Positions 15,110 through 31,217 of a stretch of DNA of 64,000 nt are shown here, piece after piece; the first letter of the stretch is position 1; each line of letters begins with the position of its first letter. Made by a program: the position numbers and the translations under genes. The stretch spans positions 27,599-91,598 of the forward strand of contig JAIXUG010000001.1 in the NCBI GenBank assembly GCA_027484105.1, written 5' to 3'. The notes beneath the pieces were generated by a model. That model was given only the letters and a program-made list of their open reading frames with translations, was not told where the DNA came from and ran no database searches. The stretch is from Comamonadaceae bacterium. Its GTDB lineage: Bacteria > Pseudomonadota > Gammaproteobacteria > Burkholderiales > Burkholderiaceae_C.

Positions 15110-17473
15110 TCAGGTTTTCAAAACCACCGGCTCCAGCGCATCGGCTTGTGCGTTGATGCGGCCAATGATCGCTGTGTGCGCGTAACCTGCGTCCTTCAAG
15201 GCCTGCACACAGGCCGCCGCTTGTGCGGCAGGCACGCTGGCCAGCAAACCGCCTGCGGTTTGCGGATCGAACAGCAGCGGGTAGCGCGGGTCTTGCACAA
15301 AGTCTTCGGCATTGCGCAAGGCGCGACGCAAGCGCACATTGGCGGGCTGCAAAGAGCTCACGATGCCCGCTTTGACGCAGTCCACCGCGCCGTCGAGCAG
15401 GGGTAGCTGGCTCAGCTGCAACTCGGCGTCCACGCCCGAGGGGCGCGTCATTTCCACCAAATGGCCCAGCAGACCAAACCCCGTGAGGTCGGTACAGGCC
15501 GTGGCGCCGTGGTGGCGCAAAATTTGAGCGCCTGCCTGGTTGGATTGCACCATCGACTGCAGCGCGGCCGCGATCCAGCGGCCCTTGGCAGCCGCTCGGG
15601 CGTGCGCGGCAAACAGCGTGCCGGTGCCCATGGGTTTGGTCAGCAGCAGCAGATCGCCGGCTTGCATGCCGCCCTTGCGCATCACGCCGCTCATCTGCTC
15701 GTCGATCAGGCCATTGATGGCAAAGCCCAAGGCCAACTCGGCCCCCTCGCCCGTGTGCCCGCCCACCAGCGCGCAGCCTGCGGCGTTCAGCACCTCCATG
15801 GCCCCGCCCATCATTTGCTTGAGCAGGTCTTCCACCTTGCGCTCCAGACCCGGCGGCACCGTGACGACCGCGGTGGCGCTTTGCGGCTCAGCCCCCATGG
15901 CAAAGATGTCACCCAGTGCGTGGTTGGCCGCCACCTTGCCAAACAGGTAAGGGTCGTCGATGAACGAGCGGAAAAAGTCCACGGTGTGCACCATGGCCAT
16001 GCCCGGTGGCACGCGCACCACGGCCGCGTCGTCGGGCGAATGCAGGCCGATCAAGACGTCGGAACGGTCCACCGGCTGCAACGACCCCAAGGCGCGAGAC
16101 AAGACATTGGCACCGACTTTGGCCCCGCAGCCGCCACAGCGCATGGCGATGGCCGAAATGGCTTGCAGCGATTCCTCAGAGCTCAAACTCAGGCGTGTGG
16201 TCGGGGCCTTGCCCTGCACCTGGATGTCCCTGAGCAGTTGCCCCATGGCGCGCACAGCTTCGCGCAAATTGGCCCCGGGTGAAACGCCGCCTGTGTGAGG
16301 CATGGCGGGCCACTCGCTGAAGCGCCGCATGAAATGGCGGTCGATCCGGTCTTTCCAACGCCAGACCCATTCACCACCAAAACCCAAGGCACCGCGAGAC
16401 CCGACGGCATACCGGTTGCCCGTGGATATCAAGGCCAGCCAATGCTGCTGGGGTGTATAGGCCTTCAGTTTTTGACCCCGCAGGCTGCGACGCAAATTGT
16501 CGGCCAAGGGCTTGGCCATGCGCACCGCGAACACGCCGGCTTTTTCCAGGGGGCGCTCGACAAACGAGGCCACATCGCCGGCCGCAAAAACCAAGGGGTC
16601 ATTCAAGCTCTGCAACTGCGGATGGACCAGGATGAAGCCTTGGGGGTCCAGTGCCAGCCCTGTGCTTTGCAGCCAGGCAGGCCCTCCGGCTTGTGTGACC
16701 CACATGGTTTCGTCGGCGTCAAAGGTTCGTCCATTGCGTGTGTGAAGGCAGCCTGGCGAGACTTGCACCACTTCAGCGTGGGTGTGCACTTCGACGTTGC
16801 GCTCTTGCATCACTTGCGCAAAACGTGCGCGCACGCCCGGGTTGTGGGTGGGCAAAATCGAATCGCCAGAGGTCAAGAGCACAAACTTCAGGTCTTCAGG
16901 GTTGCGCCCCAGGGCTTTGAGCTCAAGGCGCAAGCGGTATTGCATCGACAAGACCAGCTCGACCCCGCCAGCGCCGCCGCCCACCACCGCGATCGTCATG
17001 CGCCCCCGGTGGGAAGGCCATTGCCGCGCTTTGTCCAGCAGGGCCAACCAGCGCTGGTTGAATTGCGCAATGGGTTTGACGGGGGTGGCCAGGGCTTGCG
17101 CACCTTCGATGTTTTGCACCTGGGGTGTGGAGCCGGTGTTGATGGACAGCAGGTCGTAGGCCACGGGTGGCCGGTGTGCACAAATCACCTGTTGGTTCTG
17201 GCGGTCAATGCCCACCACTTCATCGCGGTACAAGCGGGCACCGGCAAATGCGCACAGGCGACCCAGGTCGATGTGCACCTCGTCAAAGCTGTAGTGGCCC
17301 GATATATAGCCGGGCAGCATGCCCGAGTAGGGGGTGTCGATGTCGGTGCAGATGACGGTGATGCGCACCCCGGGCTCGGGGTTCATGGCGAACATGCGCA
17401 GCACGCCCACATGGCTGTGGCCACCGCCGACCAGCACCAGGTCGCGCAACACGGGTTGGTTGATGGATTGCAT
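15110..17473 (-). CDS. selD: Bifunctional FAD-dependent pyridine nucleotide-disulfide oxidoreductase / selenide, water dikinase (SelD; SenC-like)
   Basis: N-terminal 'LVLVGGGHSHVG' flavoprotein domain (the 'N-term-to-SelD' family). C-terminal SelD/AIR-synthase fold with the N-loop 'RCGGCGAKVG' (catalytic Cys and Lys retained) and 'VGGHTGEG'. Confidence 0.9.
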   Translation of the reverse strand: MQSINQPVLRDLVLVGGGHSHVGVLRMFAMNPEPGVRITVICTDIDTPYSGMLPGYISGHYSFDEVHIDLGRLCAFAGARLYRDEVVGIDRQNQQVICAHRPPVAYDLLSINTGSTPQVQNIEGAQALATPVKPIAQFNQRWLALLDKARQWPSHRGRMTIAVVGGGAGGVELVLSMQYRLRLELKALGRNPEDLKFVLLTSGDSILPTHNPGVRARFAQVMQERNVEVHTHAEVVQVSPGCLHTRNGRTFDADETMWVTQAGGPAWLQSTGLALDPQGFILVHPQLQSLNDPLVFAAGDVASFVERPLEKAGVFAVRMAKPLADNLRRSLRGQKLKAYTPQQHWLALISTGNRYAVGSRGALGFGGEWVWRWKDRIDRHFMRRFSEWPAMPHTGGVSPGANLREAVRAMGQLLRDIQVQGKAPTTRLSLSSEESLQAISAIAMRCGGCGAKVGANVLSRALGSLQPVDRSDVLIGLHSPDDAAVVRVPPGMAMVHTVDFFRSFIDDPYLFGKVAANHALGDIFAMGAEPQSATAVVTVPPGLERKVEDLLKQMMGGAMEVLNAAGCALVGGHTGEGAELALGFAINGLIDEQMSGVMRKGGMQAGDLLLLTKPMGTGTLFAAHARAAAKGRWIAAALQSMVQSNQAGAQILRHHGATACTDLTGFGLLGHLVEMTRPSGVDAELQLSQLPLLDGAVDCVKAGIVSSLQPANVRLRRALRNAEDFVQDPRYPLLFDPQTAGGLLASVPAAQAAACVQALKDAGYAHTAIIGRINAQADALEPVVLKT

Positions 17474-17578
17474 TCTTGGGCTGTTCAGGTTGTGCTGGAG
17501 TTCAGGGGTGCATGACGATGGGGCTTGCGGCCATGTCTTGAGTGTGCCACCAGTTGAAAAGGGACTGGGTGGTTTTTG

Positions 17579-17611
17579 CTGTTCTGATGTAACGTATTGA
17601 CTTCAGAACAG
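17579..17611. promoter_or_regulatory. Perfect 9-bp inverted repeat in the selD / rSAM divergent promoter region
   Basis: 'CTGTTCTGA-N15-TCAGAACAG'. The AT-rich spacer contains a -35-like TTGACT. The repeat ends 28 nt before the rSAM ATG. Confidence 0.45.
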
Positions 17612-17638
17612 ACCGCCGCTTGATCAGGAACCCCCGCG

Positions 17639-18640
17639 ATGCACCCCACTTTGCCACTTTTGAGAGCGACCGACTTTCCGCCCATCCGCCGCAAAACCCT
17701 CGACACCTTGCAGGTCAATCTGGGCTACAAATGCAACCAGAGCTGTCTGCATTGCCATGTGGGCGCCGGCCCCAACCGCACGGAGATGATGGATGCGGCC
17801 ACAGTCGAGTCGGTCCTGGCGGTTTTGGCTCGGCGTCAGATTCAGACGCTGGATTTGACCGGGGGGGCGCCAGAGCTCAACAGCGAATTCCGGTCTTTGG
17901 TGGCGCGCGCGCGCGCCCTGGGGGTGCGCGTGATCGACCGCTGTAACCTCACCATTCTCAGTGAGCCTGGGCAAGAAGACCTGGCCGAATTCTTGGCTGC
18001 GCACCAAGTCGAGGTCACGGCATCTTTGCCCTGCTATTCGCCCGCCAATGTCGACCGACAAAGAGGTGATGGGGTTTTCGAGCGCAGCATTGCGGGGCTC
18101 AAGCAACTCAATGCCTTGGGATATGGTCAGGCTTCACGTCCTGAGCTTGTCCTGAATCTGGTTTACAACCCGCAAGGGCCCTCTTTGCCGCCGCCTCAGA
18201 CCGCCTTGCAGGCGGATTACAAGCGAGAGCTGCTCGCGCATTTCGGCATCCATTTCAACCACCTGTTTGCCTTGACCAACATGCCGGTGCAGCGTTTTGG
18301 CAGCACCTTGGTGAGCAAAGGCCAATTTGCAAGCTACATGCAGTTGCTGCGCAGTGCTTACCGTCCAGAAAATCTGGACACGGTCATGTGCCGCACCCTC
18401 ATCAGCGTGGATTGGCAAGGCTTTTTGTACGACTGCGATTTCAACCAGATGTTGGGGATGCCTTCACCCAGCGCGAGCGCCAAGCCAGCCCGCATTGAAG
18501 ACCTGTTGTCTTGGGAGGTGACGGAGCAGCCCATTGCCATTGCGGACCATTGCTATGGCTGTACCGCGGGTCAAGGCAGCAGTTGCGGCGGGGCTTTGGA
18601 AGACCCGCCAGCCCGGGTGGCGCAGTTGTCCCCGTCATGA
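17639..18640 (+). CDS. arsS: Radical SAM/Cys-rich domain protein, ArsS-like (TIGR04167-type), Cys form
   Basis: rSAM cluster motif 'CNQSCLHC'. The C-terminal Cys-rich motif is 'HCYGCTAGQGSSCGG'. From memory, some homologues carry Sec in this motif. Confidence 0.85.
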   Translation: MHPTLPLLRATDFPPIRRKTLDTLQVNLGYKCNQSCLHCHVGAGPNRTEMMDAATVESVLAVLARRQIQTLDLTGGAPELNSEFRSLVARARALGVRVIDRCNLTILSEPGQEDLAEFLAAHQVEVTASLPCYSPANVDRQRGDGVFERSIAGLKQLNALGYGQASRPELVLNLVYNPQGPSLPPPQTALQADYKRELLAHFGIHFNHLFALTNMPVQRFGSTLVSKGQFASYMQLLRSAYRPENLDTVMCRTLISVDWQGFLYDCDFNQMLGMPSPSASAKPARIEDLLSWEVTEQPIAIADHCYGCTAGQGSSCGGALEDPPARVAQLSPS

Positions 18641-19342
18641 GTGCCGCCAACCTTGGCTGAACCCATGCGATCGCCTTTGTGCATTGTGCTGCCGGTGCTG
18701 AACGAAGCGGCCACCCTGGAGGCCACGTTGCAAAGCCTGGCGCCCTTGCGCCTGCGCGGCGCTGCTGTGGTGGTGGTGGATGGCGGCAGCACCGATGCCA
18801 CCATGGACTTGGCCCGCCCCCATGCCGATGTGGTGATGGCCTCTGCGCGCGGTCGCGCGGCCCAAATGAACGCGGGGGCGGCCTTGGGCCGGGGTGATGT
18901 GCTCTTGTTTTTGCATGCGGACACCACCTTGCCCGACCAGGCCGACCGATGCGTCACGCAAGCGCTGGCCGCAGGCCATGCCTGGGGGCGATTTGATGTG
19001 CGCATCGCCGGCAGCCACTGGATGCTGCCGGTGGTGGCCACCCTGATGAACAGGCGCTCGCGCTGGACGGGCATCGCCACGGGCGACCAGGCCCTGTTCA
19101 TGCGCCGTGAGGTGTTTGAGCACCTGGGGGGCTTTGCCGCGCAAGCCCTGATGGAAGACATCGAGATGTCCAAGCGCTTGCGCGATTGGGGGGCACCCGC
19201 TTGCATCCGCCAACCGGTGCGCACTTCCGGGCGACGTTGGGAGCAGCACGGCGTGTGGCGCACCATTTTTTTGATGTGGCGCTTGCGCTGGCGTTACTGG
19301 CGTGGCGAGTCGCCCGATCGATTGGCACAGGACTACCGATGA
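18641..19342 (+). CDS. GT-A family 2 glycosyltransferase-like protein ('transferase 2, rSAM/selenodomain-associated' type)
   Basis: 'IVLPVLNEA...VVVVDGGSTD...FLHADT'. A GTG at 18641 directly abuts the rSAM stop; an ATG at 18665 is an alternative start. Confidence 0.8.
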   Translation: MPPTLAEPMRSPLCIVLPVLNEAATLEATLQSLAPLRLRGAAVVVVDGGSTDATMDLARPHADVVMASARGRAAQMNAGAALGRGDVLLFLHADTTLPDQADRCVTQALAAGHAWGRFDVRIAGSHWMLPVVATLMNRRSRWTGIATGDQALFMRREVFEHLGGFAAQALMEDIEMSKRLRDWGAPACIRQPVRTSGRRWEQHGVWRTIFLMWRLRWRYWRGESPDRLAQDYR

Positions 19343-19986
19343 GTGTGGCCTTGATCATTCTGAGCAAAGCCCCTGTCGCCGGGCTGGCCAAAACCCGTTT
19401 GATCCCGGCCCTGGGTGCGCAGGGCGCAGCCGACTTGGCTGGGCAGCTCTTGCTGCACGCGGTGCAACAGGCCCTTCAAACCCCGTTTGAGCACCTTGAG
19501 CTGTGCGTCAGCCCGGAAGTCGCTCACCCGGCGTTTGCGCAAGCAAAAGCCCTCGCGCCAGGTCGTTTGCATTGGACGGCGCAAGGCGAGGGTGATCTGG
19601 GTGCGCGCATGCACCGTGCTTTGCTGCGGCGGCTGGTGCATGAGCCATCGGTGTTGCTCATGGGCACGGATGCACCGGGCCTGAGCGCCGACGTGTTGAA
19701 GGCTGCCGCGCGGGCCTTGGACTGCAACGATGCGGTGTTCGTGCCTGCCTGTGATGGAGGGTATGCCTTGGTGGGTTTGCGTCGCCCTTGTCCGGGTTTG
19801 TTTGAAGGCATGGCATGGAGCACCCCGCAGGTCATGGCTGAGACACGCCTTCGGGCCCGAGCGGCCGGCTTGTGCTGGCAAGAGCTCGACCCGGTCTTTG
19901 ACATGGATGAGGCGTCCGATTTGCACCATCTGCCGCCGGATTGGCCCGGCCGAGACCTTTTGTTGAAAGCCCCAGCGACGCCATGA
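19339..19986 (+). CDS. DUF2064 / CofC-like nucleotidyl- or glycosyl-transferase ('transferase 1, rSAM/selenodomain-associated' type)
   Basis: N-terminus 'MSVALIILSKAPVAGLAKTRLIPALG'. There are ATGA overlaps with both neighbouring genes. Confidence 0.8.
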   Translation: MSVALIILSKAPVAGLAKTRLIPALGAQGAADLAGQLLLHAVQQALQTPFEHLELCVSPEVAHPAFAQAKALAPGRLHWTAQGEGDLGARMHRALLRRLVHEPSVLLMGTDAPGLSADVLKAAARALDCNDAVFVPACDGGYALVGLRRPCPGLFEGMAWSTPQVMAETRLRARAAGLCWQELDPVFDMDEASDLHHLPPDWPGRDLLLKAPATP

Positions 19987-20951
19987 ACGTCCCATCCTCT
20001 GCAGGCCGCAGCTGCCCCTTGCATTACCAATACGGCCCCGACGTGTTTTGTTCGGCCCCTGATCCGTGCTTGAGCGATTTGGAGACGCTGTACCTTGTGG
20101 GGGGGCTGTATGGCAACGAACTGGCGCTGCACGAGGTGTTGCGCTTGTTTGCGCAAGAAACCGGACGCAAGCGCCTGGTGTTCAATGGCGACTTCCATTG
20201 GTTCGACACCGACCCGGCCACTTTTGCACGGGTTCAAGCGGCCGTGCTCCAGCATGTGGCTTTGCGGGGCAACGTCGAAACCGAATTGGCCGACAGCCAG
20301 CCCGACCCCGATGCGGGTTGCGGCTGCGCCTACCCCGACTGGGTGGGGCAGGAGGTGGTGTCGCGCTCCAACCGCATCCTGCAGCAATTGCGCACCGCCA
20401 CCACGCCGCAGCAGCGCCAGCAACTGGCGGCCTTGCCCATGTGGCGGGTGGCGCAAGTGGGCCGCATGCGTGTGGGTGTGGTGCATGGCGATGCCCAGTC
20501 CTTGGCGGGCTGGGGCTTTGCCCAGGAACACTTGCGCCAGCCCGAGCAACGTGAGCAGGTCAGGCGCTGGTTTGAACGGGCGCAAGTCCAGGCCTTTGCC
20601 AGCTCTCACACCTGCTTGCCGGTGTTCCAGCAAGTGAAGGTGCCCGGGCAGACCCAACCCGCATGGGTGCTCAACAACGGCGCTGCGGGCATGCCCAACT
20701 TTCAGGGCGATCTGTCGGGTTTGTTCACACGCATTTCGGTCCTGCCTTTTGAGGGGCCGCAACAAAGGTGCAGCGTGCAAGCCCACGGGCTGCACTTGCA
20801 AGCCATCGCCATCGAAACCTCTGCCGAGCAAGTGCAGCAGCGCTTTTTGCAGCAGTGGCCCGAAGGTTCCGACGCACACGCGTCTTATTTTTCGCGCATC
20901 GCGGCAGGCCCTGCTTACCGCGAAGCCGATGTCATTCGCTGGGAGACCTGA
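19983..20951 (+). CDS. Calcineurin-like metallophosphoesterase-fold protein with degenerate metal-binding motifs
   Basis: Motif series 'LVGGLYGN' (in place of DxHG), 'FNGDFHWFD', 'LRGNVE' (in place of GNHE), 'VVHGD' and 'SSHTC'. It is translationally coupled to its neighbours. Confidence 0.6.
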   Translation: MNVPSSAGRSCPLHYQYGPDVFCSAPDPCLSDLETLYLVGGLYGNELALHEVLRLFAQETGRKRLVFNGDFHWFDTDPATFARVQAAVLQHVALRGNVETELADSQPDPDAGCGCAYPDWVGQEVVSRSNRILQQLRTATTPQQRQQLAALPMWRVAQVGRMRVGVVHGDAQSLAGWGFAQEHLRQPEQREQVRRWFERAQVQAFASSHTCLPVFQQVKVPGQTQPAWVLNNGAAGMPNFQGDLSGLFTRISVLPFEGPQQRCSVQAHGLHLQAIAIETSAEQVQQRFLQQWPEGSDAHASYFSRIAAGPAYREADVIRWET

Positions 20952-20953
20952 CC

Positions 20954-21799
20954 ATGTTGGCCATCATCGGAGGCACGGGCCTTTATGAACTGCCGGGCTT
21001 GCGCATCACGCAACGCCTGAACGACGGTACGCCCTTTGGCCAAGCCTCGGGCGAAGTGCTGCGCGGTCAGTACCACGACCAAGAGGTGCTGTTTTTGGCG
21101 CGCCACGGCAGCGGCCACCGCCTCCTGCCGCACGAGGTGAATTACCGCGCCAACATCTTCGCCCTCAAGCAAGCCGGGGCCACGCAGTTGCTCGGCTTTT
21201 CGGCGGTGGGCAGCCTGAGTCTGGAGGTCAAACCCGGCGACATGGCCATGCCCGAGCAGTACTTTGACTGGACACGGGGCCAACGCGAGCGCACTTTTTT
21301 TGGGCAAGGCGTGGCCGCCCACGTGTCCACCGCCAAGCCCGTCAGTGCGGGCCTGGTGGATGCGGTCTCCAATGCCGCGCAGCGCTGCGGCCTGTCGGTG
21401 CACCGCGGCCTGACCTATGCCTGCGTAGAAGGACCGCGCCTGGGCACGCAGGCCGAGAGCCATTTCTTGCGGCAAGCCGGTTGCCACCTGGTGGGCATGA
21501 CCAATGTGCCCGAGGTCTTCTTGGCCCGCGAAGCCCAGATGGCCTATGCCACCGTGGGCCTGGTCACCGACTACGACTGCTGGTTGGACGACCCGGCGCA
21601 GCACGTCAGCGTGTCCGGCATTTTTGAGCTCTATGGCAAAACCCTGGCCAAGGCCGGGCAGGTGCTCGACGCTTTGCTGTCCGCCCCTTTGCCAGCGCCG
21701 GATGCGGACAGCCGACAAGCCTTGGCCAGTGCCATGCTCACGCCCGATGCCGCTTTGTCTCCCGAGCAGGCGCAGTGGCTGGCGGTTTTGCGGCGCTGA
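20954..21799 (+). CDS. MTAP-family 5'-deoxy-5'-substituted-adenosine/inosine phosphorylase
   Basis: 'MLAIIGGTGLYELPG', 'FLARHG.GH', 'GMTNVPEVFLAREA', 'TDYDCW'. The start lies 2 nt after the upstream stop. Confidence 0.85.
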   Translation: MLAIIGGTGLYELPGLRITQRLNDGTPFGQASGEVLRGQYHDQEVLFLARHGSGHRLLPHEVNYRANIFALKQAGATQLLGFSAVGSLSLEVKPGDMAMPEQYFDWTRGQRERTFFGQGVAAHVSTAKPVSAGLVDAVSNAAQRCGLSVHRGLTYACVEGPRLGTQAESHFLRQAGCHLVGMTNVPEVFLAREAQMAYATVGLVTDYDCWLDDPAQHVSVSGIFELYGKTLAKAGQVLDALLSAPLPAPDADSRQALASAMLTPDAALSPEQAQWLAVLRR

Positions 21800-21803
21800 G
21801 TCC

Positions 21804-22778
21804 TCAAGAGTCGATGAGGTCTTGCACCCAGCGGTGCAGGGCGGCGCGCTCGGCCTGTGGTTCAAACAAGGGCGCGCGCAAAGCGCATTGGTTTTCAAGC
21901 TGTGCCATCAGCGCCGGGCCGCCAGCCGCGTCGCGGCAAGCCAGCAGCCGTGCGGCCAGGCCCTGCGCGTCTCCAGGCTCGAACACGCCGGTGTAATCCT
22001 CGCCCAGCAGGCCCATGTTGCCGTCGATGCGCGAGACCAGCACGGGGGTGCCGCTGCAAATGGCTTCCATCAGCACATGCGCGCCGCCCTCCATGCGGCT
22101 GGTGTGCACCAGCAAGTGGGCGCGCTGGATGCGCTGCAGGGTTTGGCGGTGCGGCAAGGCACCCAGCCAGCGGTAATGCGGGCATTGCGCTTGTGTGGCT
22201 TGCGCGGCTTGGCCCAGCGCGGCATCAAGAGGCGCGCCGATGTGGTCGATCAGGATGCCGCTGTCCGCAGGCAACAAGCGGGCGGCAGCCATCAGGGTCA
22301 GGGGGTCTTTTTCGTCACGCAAGTGGCCCACCATCACCACGCGCAGGTGGCGTGCAGTTTTGGTCAGGTGTTGGCGGGTCAGCGTGGATTGGTAGATCAC
22401 GCGGGCCTTGGCTTGGAGCGCTGGGGACAGTTGGTGAAGGCCCAGCCCTTGCAGCACCACCAGCGATGAGGCCAGTTGCAAGGATTGCTGGGCCATCGCG
22501 TCATGGGCAATGTCGCGGTACAGGTCGGTACCCGTGAGGACCAAGCCCAAGCCGTGTCCACCGTGTTGTTTGTGCCAAGCCAATACGGCGTCTGCCGAGC
22601 GACGGGCATGCAAGGCCAACATCACCTCGTCGGCTTGCGCCAGGGCATCGGGCCATTGCTGCACGATGCGCACACGGTGTGGCCACAGCAGGCGCTGCCA
22701 GCGACGTGCCGTTTGCCAATTGCCATTGTTGGCGGCGGCCAAGGCAGGGCTGACAATCACAATGCGCAGAGATTTCAT
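21804..22778 (-). CDS. senB: GT-B glycosyltransferase, SenB-like selenosugar synthase (TIGR04348-type)
   Basis: 'MKSLRIVIVSPALAAANNGNWQTARRW...' followed by the second Rossmann half 'LRVVMVGHLRDEKDP'. The family call is from memory of SenB/TIGR04348. The selD context supports it. Confidence 0.7.
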   Translation of the reverse strand: MKSLRIVIVSPALAAANNGNWQTARRWQRLLWPHRVRIVQQWPDALAQADEVMLALHARRSADAVLAWHKQHGGHGLGLVLTGTDLYRDIAHDAMAQQSLQLASSLVVLQGLGLHQLSPALQAKARVIYQSTLTRQHLTKTARHLRVVMVGHLRDEKDPLTLMAAARLLPADSGILIDHIGAPLDAALGQAAQATQAQCPHYRWLGALPHRQTLQRIQRAHLLVHTSRMEGGAHVLMEAICSGTPVLVSRIDGNMGLLGEDYTGVFEPGDAQGLAARLLACRDAAGGPALMAQLENQCALRAPLFEPQAERAALHRWVQDLIDS

Positions 22779-22952
22779 GAGGGTTTTATAACCGAGCACC
22801 CGGATCCGCAGTGTGGACCAGTGGCATTGAAAACCCCTTGTGCAGCAAGATCAATTTCATACTTTGTAAGCAGGAATGGACCAAAGATGCATCATCTGCA
22901 CTGCGATGGTTCGGCAATCAATTCCCCTTTTTAAATTCGGATAAAACTGATT

Positions 22953-23025: not shown

Positions 23026-24381
23026 ATGATCCGTCACGCGGTCGTCAGCGGCCCATCGCGCCTCAAGGCGTCAAGTTCCAGCTTGGCAGCACTTTGTGTG
23101 CTGAGCGCTTTGTTGTGGACCCTCCCCTTGTCCGGCTTCGCGGCCAATGCGCCGGTGCCGCAGGCTTTCGGCCAGGGCGTCACGCCAGCAGGCGATGTCC
23201 AGGAGTTCGACACGGCCCGTCTCGAAGCTTTGGTGCTGCAATTTAACCCCTTGCTCAAGGCCACTGCGCAATCTGTGGACGCCGCACGGGCTTCAGTGAC
23301 TTCTGCAGGGGCTTTGCTGAACCCTCGGGTGGACTGGTCCAGGGGCCCATGGCAGCCGCAGGGGGCCAGCTCTGCCTCCAGTCAAAGCTGGACTTTGACC
23401 CAGCCGATTGAAAACCCCCTAATTCGCCGCGCGCGCATCGACAGTGCCCAAGCGGGTCAAAAAAGCGCCGAGCAGCAATTGGCCACGGTGCGCAACGACC
23501 TGTTGGCGCAACTGCGGATGCGGATTTTTGAAGCCCTGCTGCATCAGGGTGAAGCCGAGGCCGCTGCCGAGTCGCTCACCTTGCTGGAGCAAGTGCAGCA
23601 AAGGGTTCGCGTGCGCGTGACCAGCGGAGAAGCCGCACGCTACGAGCTGATCAAGGCCGATGCCGAAGTCATCAACGCCCGCGAGCGCCAGCAAACCGCC
23701 GCCTTGCGTGCAGACAAAACGCTGCTCGAAATCAACCGGCTGGCAGCAGGCCAGTTGCCCGCCCGCTGGACGCTCAAGCCGCCGACCGCCGCCGAGCGGT
23801 CCATGACGCTGACGCTTGAGCAGCTGCAGGCCAGTGCCAGCCAGTTCAACCCGGAAATTCTCATACTCAAGCATGAGTTTGACCGAGCTCAGTCCCGATT
23901 GGCGGCCGTGCGCGCCAGTGTGTTGCCGTCGGTCGATTTGCGTTATTCCCAGATGACGGACCCCCAGGTTCGCCAATCGCAGTGGGGTATCGGCGTGCAA
24001 ATCCCCTTGCTGGACCAGCGCAGCGGCCCCATTGCCGAGGCGGTGGCCGAACTTGAGAGGGCCCGCACACGTTACGAAGGACGGCAAGCCGAAATGAACC
24101 AGCAGGTGTTGTTGGCCTGGCGGTCCCTGGAAATGTCGCGCTTGCGGGTAGACGCCCTGAGCCAGGGTGTGGTCCGCGAAGCCGAATCGGCATTGCGCGT
24201 GGCCGAGGCGGCTTACCGCTTTGGCGAGCGAGGCATTCTGGATGTGCTGGATGCACAGCGGGTTTTGCGCAGCGTTCGCGCCGACCTCTTGCAGGCCCGT
24301 TACCAGCTGCAGGTGGCCCGCATCACCCTCATTCAGCTCAGTGGCCGTTACGCTTCAGATTCCAACCTTTCCCAAAAATGA
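23026..24381 (+). CDS. TolC-family outer-membrane efflux protein
   Basis: Signal peptide 'LAALCVLSALLWTLPLSGFAA'. It has two OEP-type repeats and is the first gene of an RND operon. The start is uncertain (22951, 22996 or 23026). Confidence 0.8.
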   Translation: MIRHAVVSGPSRLKASSSSLAALCVLSALLWTLPLSGFAANAPVPQAFGQGVTPAGDVQEFDTARLEALVLQFNPLLKATAQSVDAARASVTSAGALLNPRVDWSRGPWQPQGASSASSQSWTLTQPIENPLIRRARIDSAQAGQKSAEQQLATVRNDLLAQLRMRIFEALLHQGEAEAAAESLTLLEQVQQRVRVRVTSGEAARYELIKADAEVINARERQQTAALRADKTLLEINRLAAGQLPARWTLKPPTAAERSMTLTLEQLQASASQFNPEILILKHEFDRAQSRLAAVRASVLPSVDLRYSQMTDPQVRQSQWGIGVQIPLLDQRSGPIAEAVAELERARTRYEGRQAEMNQQVLLAWRSLEMSRLRVDALSQGVVREAESALRVAEAAYRFGERGILDVLDAQRVLRSVRADLLQARYQLQVARITLIQLSGRYASDSNLSQK

Positions 24382-25562
24382 ACCCCATGCACTCCCTGAT
24401 CAAGCGCCCCCTGCGTTCACGCGCATTGTTGCTGACCACCCTCGTTGGTGCCTTGGTGCTGGTGGGCTGCGGCCAGCAGTCTGCGCCTGTCGCCACACCA
24501 GCGGCCAAACCTGCCACAGACCCCTTGCAAATCAAGGTTGAGCCTTCCATGGCCAGCCGGTTCAAGGTGGGCGATGTGGCGATGAGCAACATCGTTCCCA
24601 TCAAAGAGGTCCCCGGACGCATTGAGGCCAATGAACGGCAGGTGACCCGCATTGGGGCTTCGGTCACCGGTCGCGTGACCGAATTGCTGGTGGAGGTGGG
24701 TGATCGCATCCGTGTCGGGCAGCCTTTGGCACGTTTTGCCAGCCCTGAATTGACCCAAGCCCAAATGGCATTCTTGCGGGCCCACTCCAACGCGGGATTG
24801 GCCGAGCGGGCGGTCGACCGTGCGCGACAGCTCTTTCAGGCGGATGTGATTGGTGCTGCAGAACTGCAGCGCCGTGAGTCCGAACTGTCCGTGGCCCGTG
24901 CAGAATTGCGCGCTTTGGGCGATCAGCTCAAGCTTCTGGGCATTTCGGGGGCTCCCTTGGAGGCGCTGCGCGACCAAGGCGCCTTGCAATCCCATGCGCC
25001 CATTTTGGCCACTCAATCAGGCGTCTTGCTTGAGCGCAAAATCAGCAATGGCCAGGTGGTGCAACCCGGTGATCACCTTTTTACAGTGGCCGATCTGGGC
25101 AATGTCTGGGTGGGTGGCGCTTTGCCGGAGCAAACCGCTCGCGCCGTGCGCATGGGTCAACAGGTGGACATCGAAGTGCCTGCCTTGGGCAATCGGCAAT
25201 TGTCAGGCCGGATCATTTATGTGGGCGACGCGGTATCGCCCGAGACACGCACCGTTCCGTTTCGCACCCAGGTGGACAACCTGAACCGCGATTTAAAACC
25301 CCAAATGCTGGCCACCATGCGCATCCGTGGTGAAGCCACCAGCGAATTGGTGGTGCCCAATGACGCCGTCATCCGTGAAAGCGACCGTGACCATGTGTAC
25401 CTCAAGGTGGCAGAGGGCACCTACCGCTTCACGCCGGTCGAACTGGCCCCGGCCCACAACGATTTGCGGCCTGTGATCAAGGGACTGAAGTTGGGCGACC
25501 AAGTGGTCATTGATGGCGCGTTCCATCTGCACAACGAGCGCAAGCGCGCCGAACTTCAGTAA
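24378..25562 (+). CDS. Efflux RND periplasmic adaptor (membrane fusion) lipoprotein
   Basis: Lipobox 'LVLVGC', HlyD-like hairpin and barrel regions, and an ATGA overlap with the upstream gene. Confidence 0.85.
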   Translation: MNPMHSLIKRPLRSRALLLTTLVGALVLVGCGQQSAPVATPAAKPATDPLQIKVEPSMASRFKVGDVAMSNIVPIKEVPGRIEANERQVTRIGASVTGRVTELLVEVGDRIRVGQPLARFASPELTQAQMAFLRAHSNAGLAERAVDRARQLFQADVIGAAELQRRESELSVARAELRALGDQLKLLGISGAPLEALRDQGALQSHAPILATQSGVLLERKISNGQVVQPGDHLFTVADLGNVWVGGALPEQTARAVRMGQQVDIEVPALGNRQLSGRIIYVGDAVSPETRTVPFRTQVDNLNRDLKPQMLATMRIRGEATSELVVPNDAVIRESDRDHVYLKVAEGTYRFTPVELAPAHNDLRPVIKGLKLGDQVVIDGAFHLHNERKRAELQ

Positions 25563-25574
25563 CAAGGACTCACC

Positions 25575-28500
25575 ATGCTGAAGTCATTGATCCGTGCCGC
25601 CTTGTCCCAGCGCTTGCTGGTGCTGGTGGTGGCGATTGTTTTGCTGGGTTTTGGCGGTCGCGCCGCCATGCGCCTGTCTGTCGATGCGTTTCCCGATGTG
25701 ACCAATGTGCAGGTCCAAGTGGCCACCGAGGTGCCTGGCCGTTCGCCCGAAGAGGTCGAGCGTTTTGTCACCATGCCGCTCGAAGTGGCCATGACCGGTT
25801 TGCCGGGCCTGACCGAAATGCGTGCGCTCAACCGTGCAGGTTTGTCCTTGGTCACCTTGGTGTTCACCGACAAAACCGACGTTTATTTCGCGCGCCAATT
25901 GGTGATGGAGCGTTTGCTCGAAGTCACCCCCCGCATGCCCGAGGGGGTGGTGCCGGTTTTGGGCCCGGTGTCCACCGGTTTGGGTGAGGTTTACCAATAC
26001 ACCTTGGTGCACCCGGACGATGGCCAGCGCCAACTCTCCGAGAATGAACTGATGGAGCGGCGTGTCATCCAGGACTGGGTGTTGCGCCCCATGCTGCGCT
26101 CGATTCCGGGTGTGGCCGAGATCAACTCGATGGGTGGTCTGGAGCGCCAATTCCAGGTGTTGGTCAATCCGGACCGTTTGCGGCATTACCGTCTGACCTT
26201 GCGAGAGGTGCTGGAGGCGGTGGAGCGCAACAACGCCAATTCGGGCGGGGGGTTGCTGCGCTCTTCGGCCGAACAGTACCTGATCCGTGGCGTGGGCCTG
26301 ATCCAAACCGCCGACGACATCGGCAACATCATTTTGAAAGAGTCGGGTGATGTGCCGGTGTTCGTGCGCGATGTGGCGCAAGTCCAGGTGGGCGCTGCGG
26401 TGCGGCAGGGTGCGATTGTGCGCAACGGCGAGACCGAAGCGGTGGCCGGCATTGTGATGATGCTGCGCGGCGCCAACGCCAAAGACGTGGTGGGTCGCGT
26501 CAAAAACAAGGTGGAAGAAATCAACCAAAAGGGCTTGCTGCCCGGTGGTTTGCAAATCGAGCCGTTTTATGACCGCACGGAGCTGGTGGACTCGGCCTTG
26601 TGGATGGTGACCAAAGTCCTGCTGGAAGGCATTGTTTTCATCGTCATCATTTTGTTGCTGTTTTTGGGCGATGTGCGCTCCAGTCTGGTGGTGGTGGCCA
26701 CGATCGTCATCACGCCCTTGGTGACCTTCATGATGATGAACCAGTTGGGCTTGTCGGCCAACCTGATGTCGCTGGGGGGTTTGGCCATCGCGATTGGTTT
26801 GATGGTGGACGGCACCGTGGTGGTGGTCGAAAACGTCTTCCACAAATTGGGTCTGGCGGGCCCGGGTCGCGAATCCAAGCTGCGCATCATTTTGGAGGCG
26901 ACCAACGAGATTGCCAAACCCACGGTGTACGGCATGTCCATCATCATTTTGGTGTTCTTGCCCTTGATGACCTTGACCGGCATGGAAGGCAAGATGTTTG
27001 CACCCTTGGCCTTGACCATTGCGATCGCATTGGCGGTTTCTTTGGCGGTGTCACTCTTTTTGTCGCCCGTGCTGTGCAGCTACATCTTGCGGGGCGGCAG
27101 CGAGCACGACACCAAGCCAATCGCCTTCTTGAAACGCCATTACCTGACGGTTCTGCATGTGGCCTTGGGTGCAGAAAAGAAGACGATCGCGATCGCCGTG
27201 GCCTTGTTGGTCGGCTCTTTGTCCTTGTTTCCGCTGCTTGGCAAAAGCTTCATCCCCACCATGAAAGAGGGCAACATCGTTCCTCAATTGATTCGAGTCC
27301 CCAGCATTGCTTTGGAAGAATCGCTCAAGGTGGAATTTGAGGCGATGAAAATCGTTTCGCAAGTGCCAGGCGTCAAGTCGGTGGTGGCCAAACTGGGCCG
27401 TGGCGAATCCTTGGCAGACCCGGTTGGACCCAATGAATCCGATCCGATTGTGGTGATAGACCGCGAAGCCGGTCGCACTCAGACCGAGATCGAAGAAGAC
27501 ATTCGCAAGGCCCTGGCGGTCTTGCCCGGTGTACAGGTCATCATGAACCAGCCCATCGCACAGCGGGTGGACGAAATGGTGACCGGGGTGCGCTCGCAGT
27601 TGGCCATCAAGGTGTTTGGTGACGATCTGGCTGAACTCAAGCGCATCTCCGAAGAGGTCGCGCGCATCACCAGCACCGTGCCCGGCGCCATTGACTTGCG
27701 TGTGGAACGCTTGTCGGGGCAGCAGACCTTGACCATTGAAATCGACCGGCAGTCGATTGCCCGGTATGGCATCAATGTCTCGGATGTCAACGACCTGATC
27801 GAAACCGCTTTTGGCGGCAACGAGGTGGGCCAGTTGTACGAAGGACAAAGGCGATTTGCCATCGTGGTGCGTTACCCGAACGAGTACCGCAATTCGATCC
27901 AGACGATTCGCAACACCACCTTGAAAACCAGCGACGGCACCTTGGTGCCCTTGTCGGCCGTGGCTAGCATCGAATTGCTGGACAGTCCTCCCACCATCAG
28001 CCGTGAGTTTGGCAAACGCCGTGTGGTGGTGGGTGCCAACGTCAGCGGTCGTGACTTGGGTGGCTTTGTGCAAGAGGTGCAGCGCCGCGTCGATGCCGAG
28101 TTGATCTTGCCCGATGGTTATTACCTGTCGTGGGGCGGGCAGTTTGAGAACATGGAGCGCGCCATGGCCACCTTGACGATCATTGTGCCGCTCACCATTG
28201 CTGCGATCTTCTTCCTGCTGTTCATGCTGTTCAATTCGGTGCGCTTGGCCTCATTGATCATCATGGTCCTGCCCTTCGCCTCGATTGGTGGTGTCATCGC
28301 CTTGTTTGTTTCGGGCGAATACATCAGCGTGCCGGCATCGGTGGGCTTCATTGCCTTGTGGGGCATTGCGGTGCTCAATGGCGTGGTGCTCGTCAGCTCC
28401 ATCCGCAAACTTCGCGAAGACGGCATGTCGGTCGCAGCGGCCGTGCGTGAGGGCTGTGTGCAGCGCTTCAGGCCCGTGCTCATGACCGCCACGGTGGCCA

Positions 28501-28664
28501 TGCTGGCCCTGGTGCCTTTCCTGTTTGCCACAGGCCCGGGCTCGGAAGTGCAACGGCCCTTGGCGGTCGTTGTGATCGGGGGTTTGATTTCCTCTACATT
28601 ACTGACATTGGTCGTTTTGCCTGCCCTTTACCGGTGGTTCGATGACATGCCACAAGAAGCTTGA
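25575..28664 (+). CDS. CusA/CzcA-family (HME-type) RND efflux permease
   Basis: 1029 aa with a 12-TM ACR_tran architecture. The TM4 motif is 'AIGLMVDGTVVVVEN'. Confidence 0.9.
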   Translation: MLKSLIRAALSQRLLVLVVAIVLLGFGGRAAMRLSVDAFPDVTNVQVQVATEVPGRSPEEVERFVTMPLEVAMTGLPGLTEMRALNRAGLSLVTLVFTDKTDVYFARQLVMERLLEVTPRMPEGVVPVLGPVSTGLGEVYQYTLVHPDDGQRQLSENELMERRVIQDWVLRPMLRSIPGVAEINSMGGLERQFQVLVNPDRLRHYRLTLREVLEAVERNNANSGGGLLRSSAEQYLIRGVGLIQTADDIGNIILKESGDVPVFVRDVAQVQVGAAVRQGAIVRNGETEAVAGIVMMLRGANAKDVVGRVKNKVEEINQKGLLPGGLQIEPFYDRTELVDSALWMVTKVLLEGIVFIVIILLLFLGDVRSSLVVVATIVITPLVTFMMMNQLGLSANLMSLGGLAIAIGLMVDGTVVVVENVFHKLGLAGPGRESKLRIILEATNEIAKPTVYGMSIIILVFLPLMTLTGMEGKMFAPLALTIAIALAVSLAVSLFLSPVLCSYILRGGSEHDTKPIAFLKRHYLTVLHVALGAEKKTIAIAVALLVGSLSLFPLLGKSFIPTMKEGNIVPQLIRVPSIALEESLKVEFEAMKIVSQVPGVKSVVAKLGRGESLADPVGPNESDPIVVIDREAGRTQTEIEEDIRKALAVLPGVQVIMNQPIAQRVDEMVTGVRSQLAIKVFGDDLAELKRISEEVARITSTVPGAIDLRVERLSGQQTLTIEIDRQSIARYGINVSDVNDLIETAFGGNEVGQLYEGQRRFAIVVRYPNEYRNSIQTIRNTTLKTSDGTLVPLSAVASIELLDSPPTISREFGKRRVVVGANVSGRDLGGFVQEVQRRVDAELILPDGYYLSWGGQFENMERAMATLTIIVPLTIAAIFFLLFMLFNSVRLASLIIMVLPFASIGGVIALFVSGEYISVPASVGFIALWGIAVLNGVVLVSSIRKLREDGMSVAAAVREGCVQRFRPVLMTATVAMLALVPFLFATGPGSEVQRPLAVVVIGGLISSTLLTLVVLPALYRWFDDMPQEA

Positions 28665-28679
28665 ATTTGGAGTTTGTTG

Positions 28680-29009
28680 ATGAAAGAAGTACGAGCCATC
28701 ATTCGCCCCAACCGTCGCGAGCGTTTGCGAGAAGCTTTGCGGGCCATCCCCAATTTTCCAGGTGTTTCCATGTTCAGCGCGCAGGGCTTCACAGCCCCGG
28801 CGTCTGTCGATAAACGCAGTGTGCGTGACGAGTTGACCGACTTCACAGAGAAGTTCATGGTTTGCGTTTTGTGTCCCGATGACATGGTGGAAACCATTCG
28901 TGAAACCATCATCAAATCGTGCAGCACCGGTCAAATCGGCGATGGCTTGGTCTGGGTGCTGGACGTGGCCACAGTGCACCGCATCCGCAACAGTGAGCCC
29001 ATGGCCTGA
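28680..29009 (+). CDS. PII-like (GlnB-superfamily) small protein with a divergent T-loop, RND-associated
   Basis: It aligns by eye with the GlnK in this window: 'MKEVRAIIRP...' versus '[10 protein letters not shown]', and 'TGQIGDGLVWVLDV..VHRIRN' versus '[20 protein letters not shown]'. The 'YRGAEY' T-loop is absent. Confidence 0.75.
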   Translation: MKEVRAIIRPNRRERLREALRAIPNFPGVSMFSAQGFTAPASVDKRSVRDELTDFTEKFMVCVLCPDDMVETIRETIIKSCSTGQIGDGLVWVLDVATVHRIRNSEPMA

Positions 29010-29083
29010 TGCCATCTTCCGCAGGACTGCGACATGATCGGCCTGCTTGAGTCCTGGCGTGTTCAGGCCCAATCATTTTCAAG

Positions 29084-30241
29084 GTGGCGGAGCCTCTGAT
29101 CAACCCCTCTCGTACATCAGGATCGGCGGCATTGGCTGCAGCATTGCTCGCCACCCGCCAACGCACACTCGGTCTGATGCAGGCTTGGCAAGCGGCATTG
29201 CCCGATCTGGCTGTGCCACCCTCACCCGGCATGAATCCGCCTCTTTGGGAGTGGGGCCACATCGCCTGGTTCCAAGAGTGGTGGACAGTGCGCAACCGCC
29301 AGCGCCACGAAGGCATTCGCAGTGCATCGTCAGGCGATGGCTTCGCCCCCTCGCTCATGCCGCATGCCGACGCACTGTACAACTCCAGTGAAGTCGCCCA
29401 CGACAGCCGCTGGTCGCTGGCCCTGCCCGACTTTGAACACACCCAAGGGTATTTGTCTGACGTGCTGGCACACAGCTTGGCGCATTTGCAGGCCACGCCC
29501 GATGCCAGCGATGAGGCCCTGTACTTTTGGCGGCTCGTTCTGCAACACGAGGCCATGCACAACGAAGCCTCGGTTTACATGGCACAAGACCTCGGTCTGG
29601 CTGTACCCGAAACCCTGTGCGTTGGGCACACGCACACGGCGCATCCCGGTGCCGACACCCCGCTGCACCTGCCTGCCCAAGAGTGGACCTTGGGTCACCA
29701 CGGGCCCGGCTTTGCGTTTGACAACGAGTGTCTTGCCCACACTGTCCGTTTGCAGGCCTTCGACATCGATGCGAATGCGGTGACTTGGTCCCAATACCTG
29801 CCGTTTGTGCAGGCCACGGGCTATGCCCTGCCGCCGCACGTGCGTTGCGAACAAGGCGTTTGGCAAATGCGTCGCATGGGCGCTTGGCGAACGATGGACC
29901 CCCAGGCGCCCGTGGTGCATGTGAATGCGGTGGATGCCCAGGCCTGGTGCGAATGGGCTGGCAGGCGTTTGCCCACCGAGGCCGAATGGGAGTGTGCCGC
30001 ACACGCCACGGGTTTTGTGTGGGGCCAGGTGTGGGAGTGGACCGCCAGCGACTTCGCGCCTTACCCGGGTTTTGTGGCCCACCCCTACCGCGACTACTCC
30101 GAACCCTGGTGGCACGACCACCGTGTGCTGCGCGGCGCTTGTGCCGCCACTTCAGCCCATCTGATGGATGTGCGTTACCGCAACTTCTTTGCACCGCAGC
30201 GGCGGGACATCTTTGCAGGGTTCCGGTCGGTGGCGCTTTGA
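29084..30241 (+). CDS. senA: EgtB-family sulfoxide/selenoxide synthase (DinB_2 + FGE-sulfatase domains); SenA (selenoneine synthase) candidate
   Basis: 'WEWGHIAWFQEWW', the iron-binding motif 'LQHEAMHNE', and C-terminal 'RLPTEAEWE', 'VWEWTASDF', 'RGACAATS', 'YRNFF'. The GTG start at 29084 is uncertain. Confidence 0.75.
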   Translation: MAEPLINPSRTSGSAALAAALLATRQRTLGLMQAWQAALPDLAVPPSPGMNPPLWEWGHIAWFQEWWTVRNRQRHEGIRSASSGDGFAPSLMPHADALYNSSEVAHDSRWSLALPDFEHTQGYLSDVLAHSLAHLQATPDASDEALYFWRLVLQHEAMHNEASVYMAQDLGLAVPETLCVGHTHTAHPGADTPLHLPAQEWTLGHHGPGFAFDNECLAHTVRLQAFDIDANAVTWSQYLPFVQATGYALPPHVRCEQGVWQMRRMGAWRTMDPQAPVVHVNAVDAQAWCEWAGRRLPTEAEWECAAHATGFVWGQVWEWTASDFAPYPGFVAHPYRDYSEPWWHDHRVLRGACAATSAHLMDVRYRNFFAPQRRDIFAGFRSVAL

Positions 30242-30248
30242 GCGATTT

Positions 30249-31217
30249 TCAGGCCTGCGCCCAAAACACCGCGAAACGCTCGGCCGGGTCCGTCCAAAAC
30301 TCGGTGCTGGCAAAACCGGCTTGGCGCAGCAAAGCACCAAAGTCAGGCACGCGCCACTTGTAAGCGTTCTCGGTGTGGATGGTCTCGCCCGCAGCGAACG
30401 CGCGCTCGCCGCCAGGCCAGCGCACGGTCAGGGCTTGGCGTGCCTGCAGGTGCATCTCCACCCGCGATTGGACCGCGTTGAACCGCGACAGGTGTTGCCA
30501 GTCGCGCACCGCAAAGTCGCTGCCCACCAAGCGGTTGATGTGCAGCAACAAATTCAAATCGAAAGCGGCCGTCACACCCAAAGCATCGTCGTAGGCGGCT
30601 TCCAGCTCGGCGGGGTCTTTGAGCAAATCCACTCCGATGAACAAACCGCTGCCCGGCGCCGTGCCGCAACAGGTGTGCAGTTGGCGCAAAAACACCAGTG
30701 ACTCATTCGGCGTGAAGTTGCCGATGCTCGAACCTGGGTAGAACAGCACCCGCGGCTGTGCCGGGTCCAAGCCGAGCGCTGGCGGCAAGCTCAAGCCCGA
30801 AGAAAAGTCCAAGCCCACCCCCGCCATGGGCAAATCGGGGTATTGGCGTTGCAAACACGCGAGCGCGTGGCGCAAAAAATCCACCGAGATGTCCACCGCC
30901 ACATAGCGCCCCGCGGAGAACGCCCCCAACAAGCGCCCGGCTTTTTCGCAATTGCCAGCCCCCAAATCAATCCAGCAAGCCGCAGACGGCAAACGCGCGA
31001 TCATGGCCGGTGTGTGCAAGCCCATGGCCTGCGCCTCGTTGCGCGTGACGTCGTATTCCGGCAGCTCGGTGATGGCCTCGAACAGGCGCGAGCCCAATGC
31101 GTCGTAGAGGTATTTGGGCGAAGTGAAGGCCTGCGGGGCGCTCAAGCCCTGAAGGAGTTCCTGCGCCACGGCGGCGGCGTTGTGTTGGTACAGCTGGATG
31201 AATTGGGGTGTGGTCAT
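30249..31217 (-). CDS. egtD: L-histidine N-alpha-methyltransferase (hercynine synthase) EgtD
   Basis: 'SPKYLYDALGSRLFEAITELPEYDVTRNE', 'YPGSSIGNF', 'DDALGVTAAFDLNLL'. These are EgtD/Methyltransf_33 signatures. Confidence 0.9.
   Translation of the reverse strand: MTTPQFIQLYQHNAAAVAQELLQGLSAPQAFTSPKYLYDALGSRLFEAITELPEYDVTRNEAQAMGLHTPAMIARLPSAACWIDLGAGNCEKAGRLLGAFSAGRYVAVDISVDFLRHALACLQRQYPDLPMAGVGLDFSSGLSLPPALGLDPAQPRVLFYPGSSIGNFTPNESLVFLRQLHTCCGTAPGSGLFIGVDLLKDPAELEAAYDDALGVTAAFDLNLLLHINRLVGSDFAVRDWQHLSRFNAVQSRVEMHLQARQALTVRWPGGERAFAAGETIHTENAYKWRVPDFGALLRQAGFASTEFWTDPAERFAVFWAQA

Follow-up and report, generated by a model that had tools for sequence, protein, structure and literature searches.

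A selenoneine gene set split by insertions in a Comamonadaceae bacterium

Genes at the locus

The stretch of DNA analysed here, 64 kb from a Comamonadaceae bacterium (the window, to which all our conclusions refer), carries the genes predicted for the synthesis of selenoneine: a selD fusion (senC), senB, senA and egtD. An operon for a putative selenate/selenite ABC importer lies beside them. These eight core open reading frames (ORFs) are:

15110-17473, minus strand: senC, a fusion of a flavoprotein like type-II NADH dehydrogenases (NDH-2; TIGR03169) with SelD, 787 aa, called with the NCBIfam models
21804-22778, minus strand: senB, selenosugar synthase (GT-B); the ORF extends to 22799, the ATG at 22778 being the likelier start
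29084-30241, plus strand: senA, selenoneine synthase (DinB plus FGE-sulfatase fold, non-haem Fe), called with NF041186 and by alignment with SenA of Variovorax paradoxus (VpSenA)
30249-31217, minus strand: egtD, histidine N-alpha-trimethyltransferase (hercynine), called with TIGR03438; convergent with senA, with a 7-bp gap
34501-35490, plus strand: TIGR04553 binding protein (349 bits, cut-off 250)
35509-36345, plus strand: importer ATPase, part of the putative selenate/selenite ABC importer at 34501-38094
36359-37264 and 37261-38094, plus strand: two PhnE-like permeases of the same importer operon

Families were assigned with the NCBIfam equivalog models and their curated cut-offs, and scores are given as bits/cut-off. 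Two sets of loci, 160 in all, served for comparison. A scan for SenB in species-representative genomes provided 80 loci at the species level (L001-L080), in which genes were mapped by tblastn. The second set consists of 80 metagenome loci anchored on ArsS, a radical SAM family that is also represented in the window; 36 of these span at least 8 kb and are referred to as long. The loci nearest to the window come from Limnohabitans metagenome-assembled genomes, with SenB proteins 78-82% identical to that of the window and flanking proteins up to 97% identical.

Identity of the selenoneine enzymes

The SenC protein has two domains. Residues 11-385 match TIGR03169 (501.5/310), the pyridine-nucleotide-disulfide oxidoreductase family designated 'Nterm_to_SelD', and resemble the type-II NADH dehydrogenases of known structure (9pxk, 4nwz), while residues 444-751 match the selD model TIGR00476 (294.7/125). 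In the alignment with E. coli SelD (3u0o), C449 and K452 correspond to Cys17 and Lys20, and Cys19 is replaced by Ala. We also considered the SelD-like family 'fusion_not_SelD', which was rejected because the score (468.6) fell under the cut-off (700). A single ORF encodes the fusion in 46 of the 80 SenB-anchored loci; compared with the fusions located directly 3' of senB in L001-L008, L012 and L063, the window protein is 86-93% identical in the N domain and 87-91% identical in the SelD domain.

SenB matches TIGR04348 (416/300), and its closest solved structure is that of V. paradoxus SenB (VpSenB; 398 bits). The catalytic residue K158 of VpSenB is present as K164, and both R161 and the EGGAHV motif are also kept, the roles of the motif and residues being those described previously (PMC10891094, PMC11237966). 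The sole departure among the mapped residues is Q29, which replaces R22, a ribose-contacting residue of VpSenB at the UDP-ribose contact. Activity has also been assayed for two further SenBs of the order Burkholderiales, one of a Comamonadaceae bacterium and one of a Ramlibacter sp. (PMC10891094).

SenA scored above the cut-off of the selenoneine synthase model NF041186 (455.8/420), just 223.6/360 with the EgtB model TIGR03440, and below the cut-off of the OvoA model too. Among solved structures, VpSenA gave 406 bits, OvsA 156 and EgtB about 102. The true EgtBs encoded next to egtD in L038 and L052 scored 501-543 bits with the EgtB model and 323-349 bits with the SenA model. The iron triad H59/H155/H159 corresponds to H71/H167/H171 of VpSenA, and the catalytic Y335 to Y363. 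Likewise, N51, E56 and R109 correspond to N63, E68 and R120 of the VpSenA selenosugar site, mutation of which cripples the enzyme (PMC11237966). SenA proteins have a His where EgtB has the thiol-binding Arg87 (10.1101/2022.04.13.486033). H106 of the window protein aligns with VpSenA H117, and the spacing suggests that this is the position of EgtB Arg87. The whole C-terminal motif, which would include the equivalent of VpSenA Asp416, is nearly identical to that of VpSenA. A second lineage of SenA, with about 40% identity to that of the window, was observed in Rhodoferax (L040, L041, L057-L059 and L067). Here senA is on the strand of senB and its position differs; the two copies scanned (L040 and L041) scored above the SenA cut-off (433-435 bits).

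EgtD matches TIGR03438 (329.9/290.9) and aligned over residues 14-317 with the Mycobacterium smegmatis enzyme (4pim) at 184 bits. Unlike in L038 and L052, the window egtD has no adjoining canonical egtB; if egtB is also missing from the rest of the genome, selenoneine would be the only purpose of egtD.

The E-values of the four ORFs of this route range from 1e-88 to 1e-150, ruling out chance for the family matches. The preliminary description of this DNA had proposed a SelD domain retaining the catalytic Cys/Lys loop, a GT-B protein of the SenB family, an EgtB-fold protein as the SenA candidate and an EgtD, and had concluded that this DNA has genes for all four activities of the route. This view is upheld, since the four pass the curated models and their catalytic residues are those known from Variovorax and E. 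coli. The outcomes that it regarded as fatal, a SenA that belongs to the thiol-using EgtB clade or a GT-B protein that lies outside SenB, are contradicted by the model scores. As it had also noted, no selA, selB or selU is visible: none turned up among those large ORFs of the window that were scanned, and a tRNA scan and an Rfam scan of all 64 kb gave no match, hence no tRNA-Sec, SECIS element or riboswitch. At the level of the enzymes, the window proteins have all the predicted features by which sen members are recognized.

Organization of the locus in related bacteria

In the 80 SenB-centred loci the usual layout is compact. The four genes of the putative selenate ABC importer are followed by egtD and senA, which face each other, and then by senB and the selD fusion, both oriented like egtD, with intergenic gaps of 4-284 bp. 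The gap between senB and selD measures 4-194 bp in all the loci but L004, L015 and L061, and that between senA and senB 50-284 bp in all but L004. The TIGR04553-type ABC operon adjoins the sen genes in about 43 of the 80 loci. In the window the same eight genes are present and their order and orientation are unchanged, but senB is 4330 bp from selD and senA is 6284 bp from senB. The adjacency that characterizes the sen family (senB beside or overlapping selD, and senA beside senB) is missing from the window because three discrete insertions supply the extra DNA. DNA alignment of the window with L001 and L004 shows collinearity save for three blocks: an ArsS cassette between selD and senB (insertion 1, 17474-21803), an RND operon between senB and senA (insertion 2, 22800-29083) and a block with a LysR-type regulator between egtD and the importer (insertion 3, about 31219-34695).

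From this comparison we consider it likely that the window carries a canonical Comamonadaceae-type sen locus, stretched from about 8.5 kb to about 23 kb by three unrelated inserted blocks, and that these blocks are passengers. The gene set itself is the selenoneine set already described, and the unusual part is its insertion-split arrangement. The preliminary description had presented the set as dispersed rather than as a compact operon, with a radical SAM operon (17639-21799, plus strand) and an RND operon (22951-29009, plus strand) wedged among the sen genes. Both operons are present and the genes are spread as it said, but the layout is compact in the 80 related loci, the spread being that of three inserted blocks; the description had overlooked insertion 3 and the ABC importer.

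Other relatives carry different inserts, of about 1.4 to 7 kb, at the junction of egtD and senA, which in L003, L005 and L063 are separated by a block of about 7 kb, suggesting that the junctions of the sen locus are generally prone to insertion. The search for signs of mobile elements at the edges of the insertions in the window revealed short inverted repeats only, none of them flanking the inserts.

With three of its four junctions interrupted, the locus could be decaying, the insertions having cut genes off from their promoters so that the pathway no longer works. Moreover, senB is convergent with the ArsS cassette, the two stop codons being 4 bp apart with no terminator between them. We nevertheless hold this to be very unlikely. 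The eight core ORFs are full length, keep their catalytic residues and are 75-97% identical in amino acid sequence to their L004 orthologues, and the L004 lineage retains the ArsS insertion alongside intact sen genes.

In four Limnohabitans loci (L006, L007, L008 and L012) we observed senB and the selD fusion, but no senA or egtD at distances of up to 10 kb. Selenosugars may be the sole product of these species, or may be supplied to another pathway.

The RND operon and the third insertion

Insertions 2 and 3 encode the following proteins:

22951-24381, plus strand: TolC-family outer-membrane factor (family match below the cut-off)
24378-25562, plus strand: membrane fusion protein (TIGR01730, 151.6 bits, cut-off 94.9)
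25575-28664, plus strand: CusA/CzcA-family HME-RND pump (TIGR00914, 1098 bits, cut-off 701)
28674-29009, plus strand: P-II/DUF3240-like protein, last gene of insertion 2
31291-32502, minus strand: M20 amidohydrolase, insertion 3
32499-33506, minus strand: TctC-family binding protein, insertion 3
33584-34492, plus strand: LysR/GcvA-like regulator, insertion 3

The RND operon (22951-29009) has a G+C content of 59.5%, compared with 63-65% for the sen genes, and is intact in only one of the 81 loci, that of the window. In L004, which is the sister of the window, a 226-aa TolC stub (9156-9836) and a 65-bp fragment of the pump gene (9171-9235) remain directly upstream of an intact senA. This scar indicates that the operon dates back to the common ancestor and that the sister lineage lost it, with senA left unharmed. 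Since the end that L004 kept is the promoter-proximal one, its retention suggests that senA is transcribed from the RND promoter.

The same observations bear on the idea that the operon was recruited to export selenoneine, selenosugars or metal-selenoneine complexes and that senA is its last gene. The position of senA, 75 bp downstream of the P-II-like gene and on the same strand, would agree with this, as would the stub kept in front of senA in L004. However, the pump belongs with a high score to a heavy-metal efflux family, and the operon, of lower G+C content, is found intact in a single locus and was deleted in the sister lineage with senA left intact. We rate the exporter idea as highly improbable, and the RND operon is almost certainly outside the selenium system. 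The motif in the fourth transmembrane segment (TM4) of the pump reads AIAIGLMVDGTVVVVEN, which we take to be neither the classic Czc form (DFG..DGA..VEN) nor the Cus form, and we assign no metal substrate to it.

Insertion 3 occurs in the window only; in L001, L004, L011 and L018, egtD and the ABC operon have no such block between them.

The ArsS cassette

Insertion 1 consists of five translationally coupled genes and the spacer that separates them from the selD fusion:

17474-17638, no strand: divergent spacer between the selD fusion and arsS, 165 bp, with an operator-like inverted repeat
17639-18640, plus strand: ArsS-family radical SAM protein, gene 1 (TIGR04167, 464 bits, cut-off 300)
18641-19342, plus strand: TIGR04283 GT2 glycosyltransferase (274.9 bits, cut-off 182; Pfam Glycos_transf_2)
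19339-19986, plus strand: TIGR04282/DUF2064 nucleotidyl-transferase-like protein (179.3 bits, cut-off 134); the ORF opens at 19186, and the probable start, ATG 19339, overlaps the upstream stop codon
19983-20951, plus strand: metallophosphoesterase-like protein, weak Metallophos_2 match; the ORF opens at 19941, with its probable ATG at 19983
20954-21799, plus strand: MTAP-like 5'-deoxy-5'-substituted-adenosine phosphorylase (TIGR01694, 268.1 bits, just below the cut-off of 274.85)

The cassette exactly fills the interval from the senB stop to the selD start, with no spare DNA. Only L004 has it at this junction, where tblastn matched each of the five proteins over its full length (66-92% identity, and 92% for the MTAP-like protein). 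Within the 165-bp spacer, an inverted repeat is found at 17579-17590 and 17600-17611 (CTGTTCTGATGT ... ACTTCAGAACAG); a block covering most of it (17582-17608) is identical to L004 at 26 of 27 positions, while the surrounding spacer has diverged. This repeat may be a binding site for a regulator. The ArsS protein carries the CX3CX2C motif at C32/C36/C39 and a C-terminal Cys-rich domain with Cys, not Sec. A selenoprotein ArsS would have explained the link with selD, but was rejected, as the ORF is complete, with its Cys-rich motifs and no in-frame stop. A PDB sequence search with the phosphoesterase-like protein found no relative.

The distribution of the cassette weighs against seeing it as a mere passenger. 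Both the window and L004 have it intact, whereas the RND operon has decayed in L004. Besides the window, 6 of the 80 loci have genes of the cassette no further than 10 kb from senB, when about 0.5 would be expected by chance (P about 1e-5, or 2e-3 counting lineages), indicating that its placement is not random. It also abuts the TIGR03169 domain of SenC, and standalone TIGR03169 proteins (333/310 and 320/310 bits) belong to some ArsS cassettes. The sen-linked cassettes represent at least four lineages with differing arrangements (L004 and the window, L043, L078, and the Hydrogenophaga loci L027, L038 and L042). In a neighbour-joining tree, the sen-linked ArsS proteins fell in three separate parts, so the juxtaposition arose more than once; a specialised sen-linked subfamily of ArsS, which we considered, was rejected for want of a clade of its own.

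To characterize the usual company of ArsS, we listed its partners in the 36 long ArsS loci: TIGR04283 (21 loci), TIGR04282 (20), a DedA(VTT)-MerA-like fusion (18), the phosphoesterase-like protein (13), an ArsM-like protein and a standalone TIGR03169 protein (6 each), and DUF3047, DUF547 and MTAP-like proteins (5 each). The fullest ArsS operon that we observed (L084, 3988-14853) comprises ArsS, DedA-MerA, TIGR04283, TIGR04282, a standalone TIGR03169 protein, a PhnDEC-like ABC system, and the phosphoesterase-like and MTAP-like proteins, with no ArsM.

These results raise the possibility that the cassette is tied functionally to the selenium genes in a composite metalloid system, possibly sharing the TIGR03169 domain and a regulator with selD; it might then adenosylate selenium species to yield 5-deoxy-5-seleno-riboside compounds, besides or instead of arsenosugars. 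Such a tie would account for a cassette placed exactly between senB and selD, for a spacer shared with selD whose repeat is conserved in L004, and for the recurrence near sen loci, far above chance. In keeping with it, tblastn with an ArsS-linked ArsM-like query found no match in the window or in L001-L080, sen-linked cassettes included, though an ArsM may be encoded at another place in the genome; the MTAP-like, nucleotidyl-transferase-like and GT2 proteins would fit adenine removal, sugar activation and glycosyl transfer on a 5'-substituted adenosine.

However, the SelD domain, senB, senA and egtD were found in none of the 80 ArsS-anchored loci, which argues that the cassette has no general need for selenophosphate, and most sen loci do without the cassette. 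ArsM-type methyltransferases adjoin ArsS in 6 of the 36 long loci, which fits arsenic chemistry. The family itself is the NCBIfam equivalog of the characterised ArsS, which adenosylates arsenic in arsenosugar synthesis, as stated in a passage of PMC12159101 citing Cheng et al. 2021. On balance we find a functional tie of this kind unlikely, and continue to favour a canonical sen locus with inserted blocks, to which the cassette may have a looser functional or regulatory link.

Families shared by sen and ArsS loci

Three families form an accessory trio common to both kinds of locus: DUF547, DUF3047 and a protein of about 720 aa in which a DedA/VTT domain is joined to a MerA-like flavoprotein. 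The set occurs near senB in at least 17 of the 80 loci (L006, L008, L009, L012, L013, L027, L032, L033, L038, L041-L043, L050, L057, L058, L066 and L078) and next to ArsS in 18 of the 36 long loci (in the range L083-L155). SelD is not fused in Hydrogenophaga, and there the genes for the DedA-MerA fusion and DUF3047 share an operon with a standalone TIGR03169 gene. The window has two genes of this kind at its periphery:

2796-4958, plus strand: DedA(VTT)-MerA-like flavoprotein fusion, recurring near sen loci
4886-5698 (ORF), plus strand: DUF3047 protein, recurring near sen loci

Their co-location with sen genes in other species suggests that they could belong to the sen locus of the window. No NCBIfam model covers the trio, a PDB sequence search with DUF3047 found no relative, and a literature search for links between selenoneine and the ArsS-cassette families, DUF547, DUF3047 or DedA-flavoprotein fusions found nothing relevant.

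That the standalone TIGR03169 protein and the trio are common to ArsS cassettes and sen loci also speaks for a composite system. A broader form of it would join them and the cassette in a wider metalloid system that shares the supply of reduced selenium and its regulation with sen, and would give these Burkholderiales a second class of organoselenium compounds, such as 5-deoxy-5-seleno-ribosides formed through radical adenosylation, phosphorolysis and glycosyl transfer. We regard this broader form as more doubtful still. SelD and ArsS act on selenide and trivalent arsenic, respectively; both are reduced metalloids, and similar reductase genes may be drawn on by the two systems. Such a shared need could explain the co-location without a shared product. 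If, alternatively, the co-location reflects function, it could point to steps in selenium or arsenic reduction or handling that are as yet unknown.

Of the larger composite selenium system proposed in the preliminary description, the part resting on the RND operon is not supported, given an operon intact in the window only and a scar in L004; the radical SAM cassette gains weak support from its presence in 6 of 80 sen loci and is opposed by the ArsS loci devoid of sen genes. The point worth following is the non-random co-location of the ArsS-cassette and DedA-flavoprotein/DUF547/DUF3047 genes with sen loci.

Other genes in the window

An MFS transporter (40358-41647) has a sub-threshold match to ArsK, the arsenite efflux family (181.6/400), and is the only other arsenic-related match in the window. 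A patch of low G+C content (6001-8000, 55.6%) comprises part of a Methyltransf_23 gene (5757-6779, minus strand) and an Sbt_1-family permease gene (6960-7949, plus strand). These two genes were considered as parts of the accessory module and rejected, since none of the 160 loci has a counterpart of either.

Proposed pathway and its implications

We propose the following route, of which several steps have been shown with enzymes of other bacteria. The TIGR04553-type ABC transporter would import a selenium oxyanion, as its family name suggests; the name 'putative selenate ABC transporter' expresses a hypothesis of the NCBIfam curators on the substrate. The NDH-2-like flavoprotein domain fused to SelD would help to supply reduced selenium, and the SelD domain would convert selenide and ATP into selenophosphate, as shown for V. 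paradoxus SelD/SenC, which refuses sulfide (10.1101/2022.04.13.486033). SenB would then move the selenium from selenophosphate to UDP-GlcNAc, giving 1-seleno-GlcNAc, a reaction shown for VpSenB and the two other SenBs; VpSenB makes 1-seleno-sugars from UDP-GlcNAc, UDP-Glc or UDP-GalNAc (10.1101/2022.04.13.486033). EgtD would trimethylate histidine to hercynine, as shown for its V. paradoxus orthologue (10.1101/2022.04.13.486033). SenA, with O2 and Fe(II), would couple the hercynine with the selenosugar. This coupling was shown for VpSenA, whose selenoxide product eliminates spontaneously to selenoneine without an EgtE-type lyase (10.1101/2022.04.13.486033).

The insertions have probably rewired the transcription of the locus. 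Judging from the positions of the genes, selD would share a divergent promoter region with arsS, senA would follow the RND operon and egtD would lie downstream of the amidohydrolase gene. A scan for promoters and terminators from 14.8 to 31.5 kb gave counts no higher than those of shuffled sequence and lent operon structure no support.

With this locus, a Limnohabitans-like freshwater bacterium has the genes for a complete selenoneine route. Limnohabitans bacteria abound in the plankton of fresh waters. Where the selenoneine that accumulates in aquatic animals comes from has been called enigmatic (10.1101/2022.04.13.486033), and planktonic producers of this type are plausible sources of selenoneine at the base of the food web. 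For genome mining, rules that demand senB adjacent to selD miss genuine sen loci in which insertions have separated the two genes.

Comparison with known systems

Among the inserted blocks, the RND operon resembles the CusCBA/CzcCBA operons in having a TolC-type factor, a membrane fusion protein and an HME-RND pump, followed by the small P-II/DUF3240-like gene, and its pump appears to differ from theirs in the TM4 motif. The ArsS cassette is similar to the arsenosugar system (Synechocystis ArsM/ArsS; TIGR04167/TIGR04282/TIGR04283) in all three families and in the phosphoesterase partner. It differs from that system in having no ArsM nearby, in the presence of the MTAP-like phosphorylase and in being embedded between senB and selD; it also lacks the DedA-MerA fusion that adjoins ArsS in half of the long loci.

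NADH-dehydrogenase-like/SelD proteins are the most common SelD fusions known (Mariotti et al. 2015, PMC4561486). Like the window SenC, they combine an N-terminal NDH-2-like domain with a Cys-type SelD, but in the window and in the 46 loci with a single-ORF fusion the gene sits in a sen locus and not in the selenoprotein context of the known fusions. Zhang et al. 2008 is reportedly a further source on such fusions.

The ovs and egt clusters encode related EgtB-fold iron enzymes, and ovs also has a SenB-type selenosugar synthase and a SelD; by the structure scores, the window SenA is far from both OvsA and EgtB compared with SenA. The closest known system is the senC-senB-senA cluster of V. paradoxus DSM 30034, described by Kayrouz and Seyedsayamdost, who catalogued 827 sen clusters (10.1101/2022.04.13.486033). 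In the Variovorax loci that we sampled (L056 and L060), the flavoprotein-SelD fusion follows senB as in the usual layout. The Kayrouz and Seyedsayamdost study is said to have appeared in Nature in 2022. All three enzyme families of that cluster recur in the window, with conserved active sites; the matches to the solved V. paradoxus SenA and SenB structures are of about 400 bits. The window differs from the V. paradoxus cluster in the Gln that stands for Arg22 in SenB, and in the spacing of the genes, with senB and selD 4.3 kb apart and senA and senB 6.3 kb apart.

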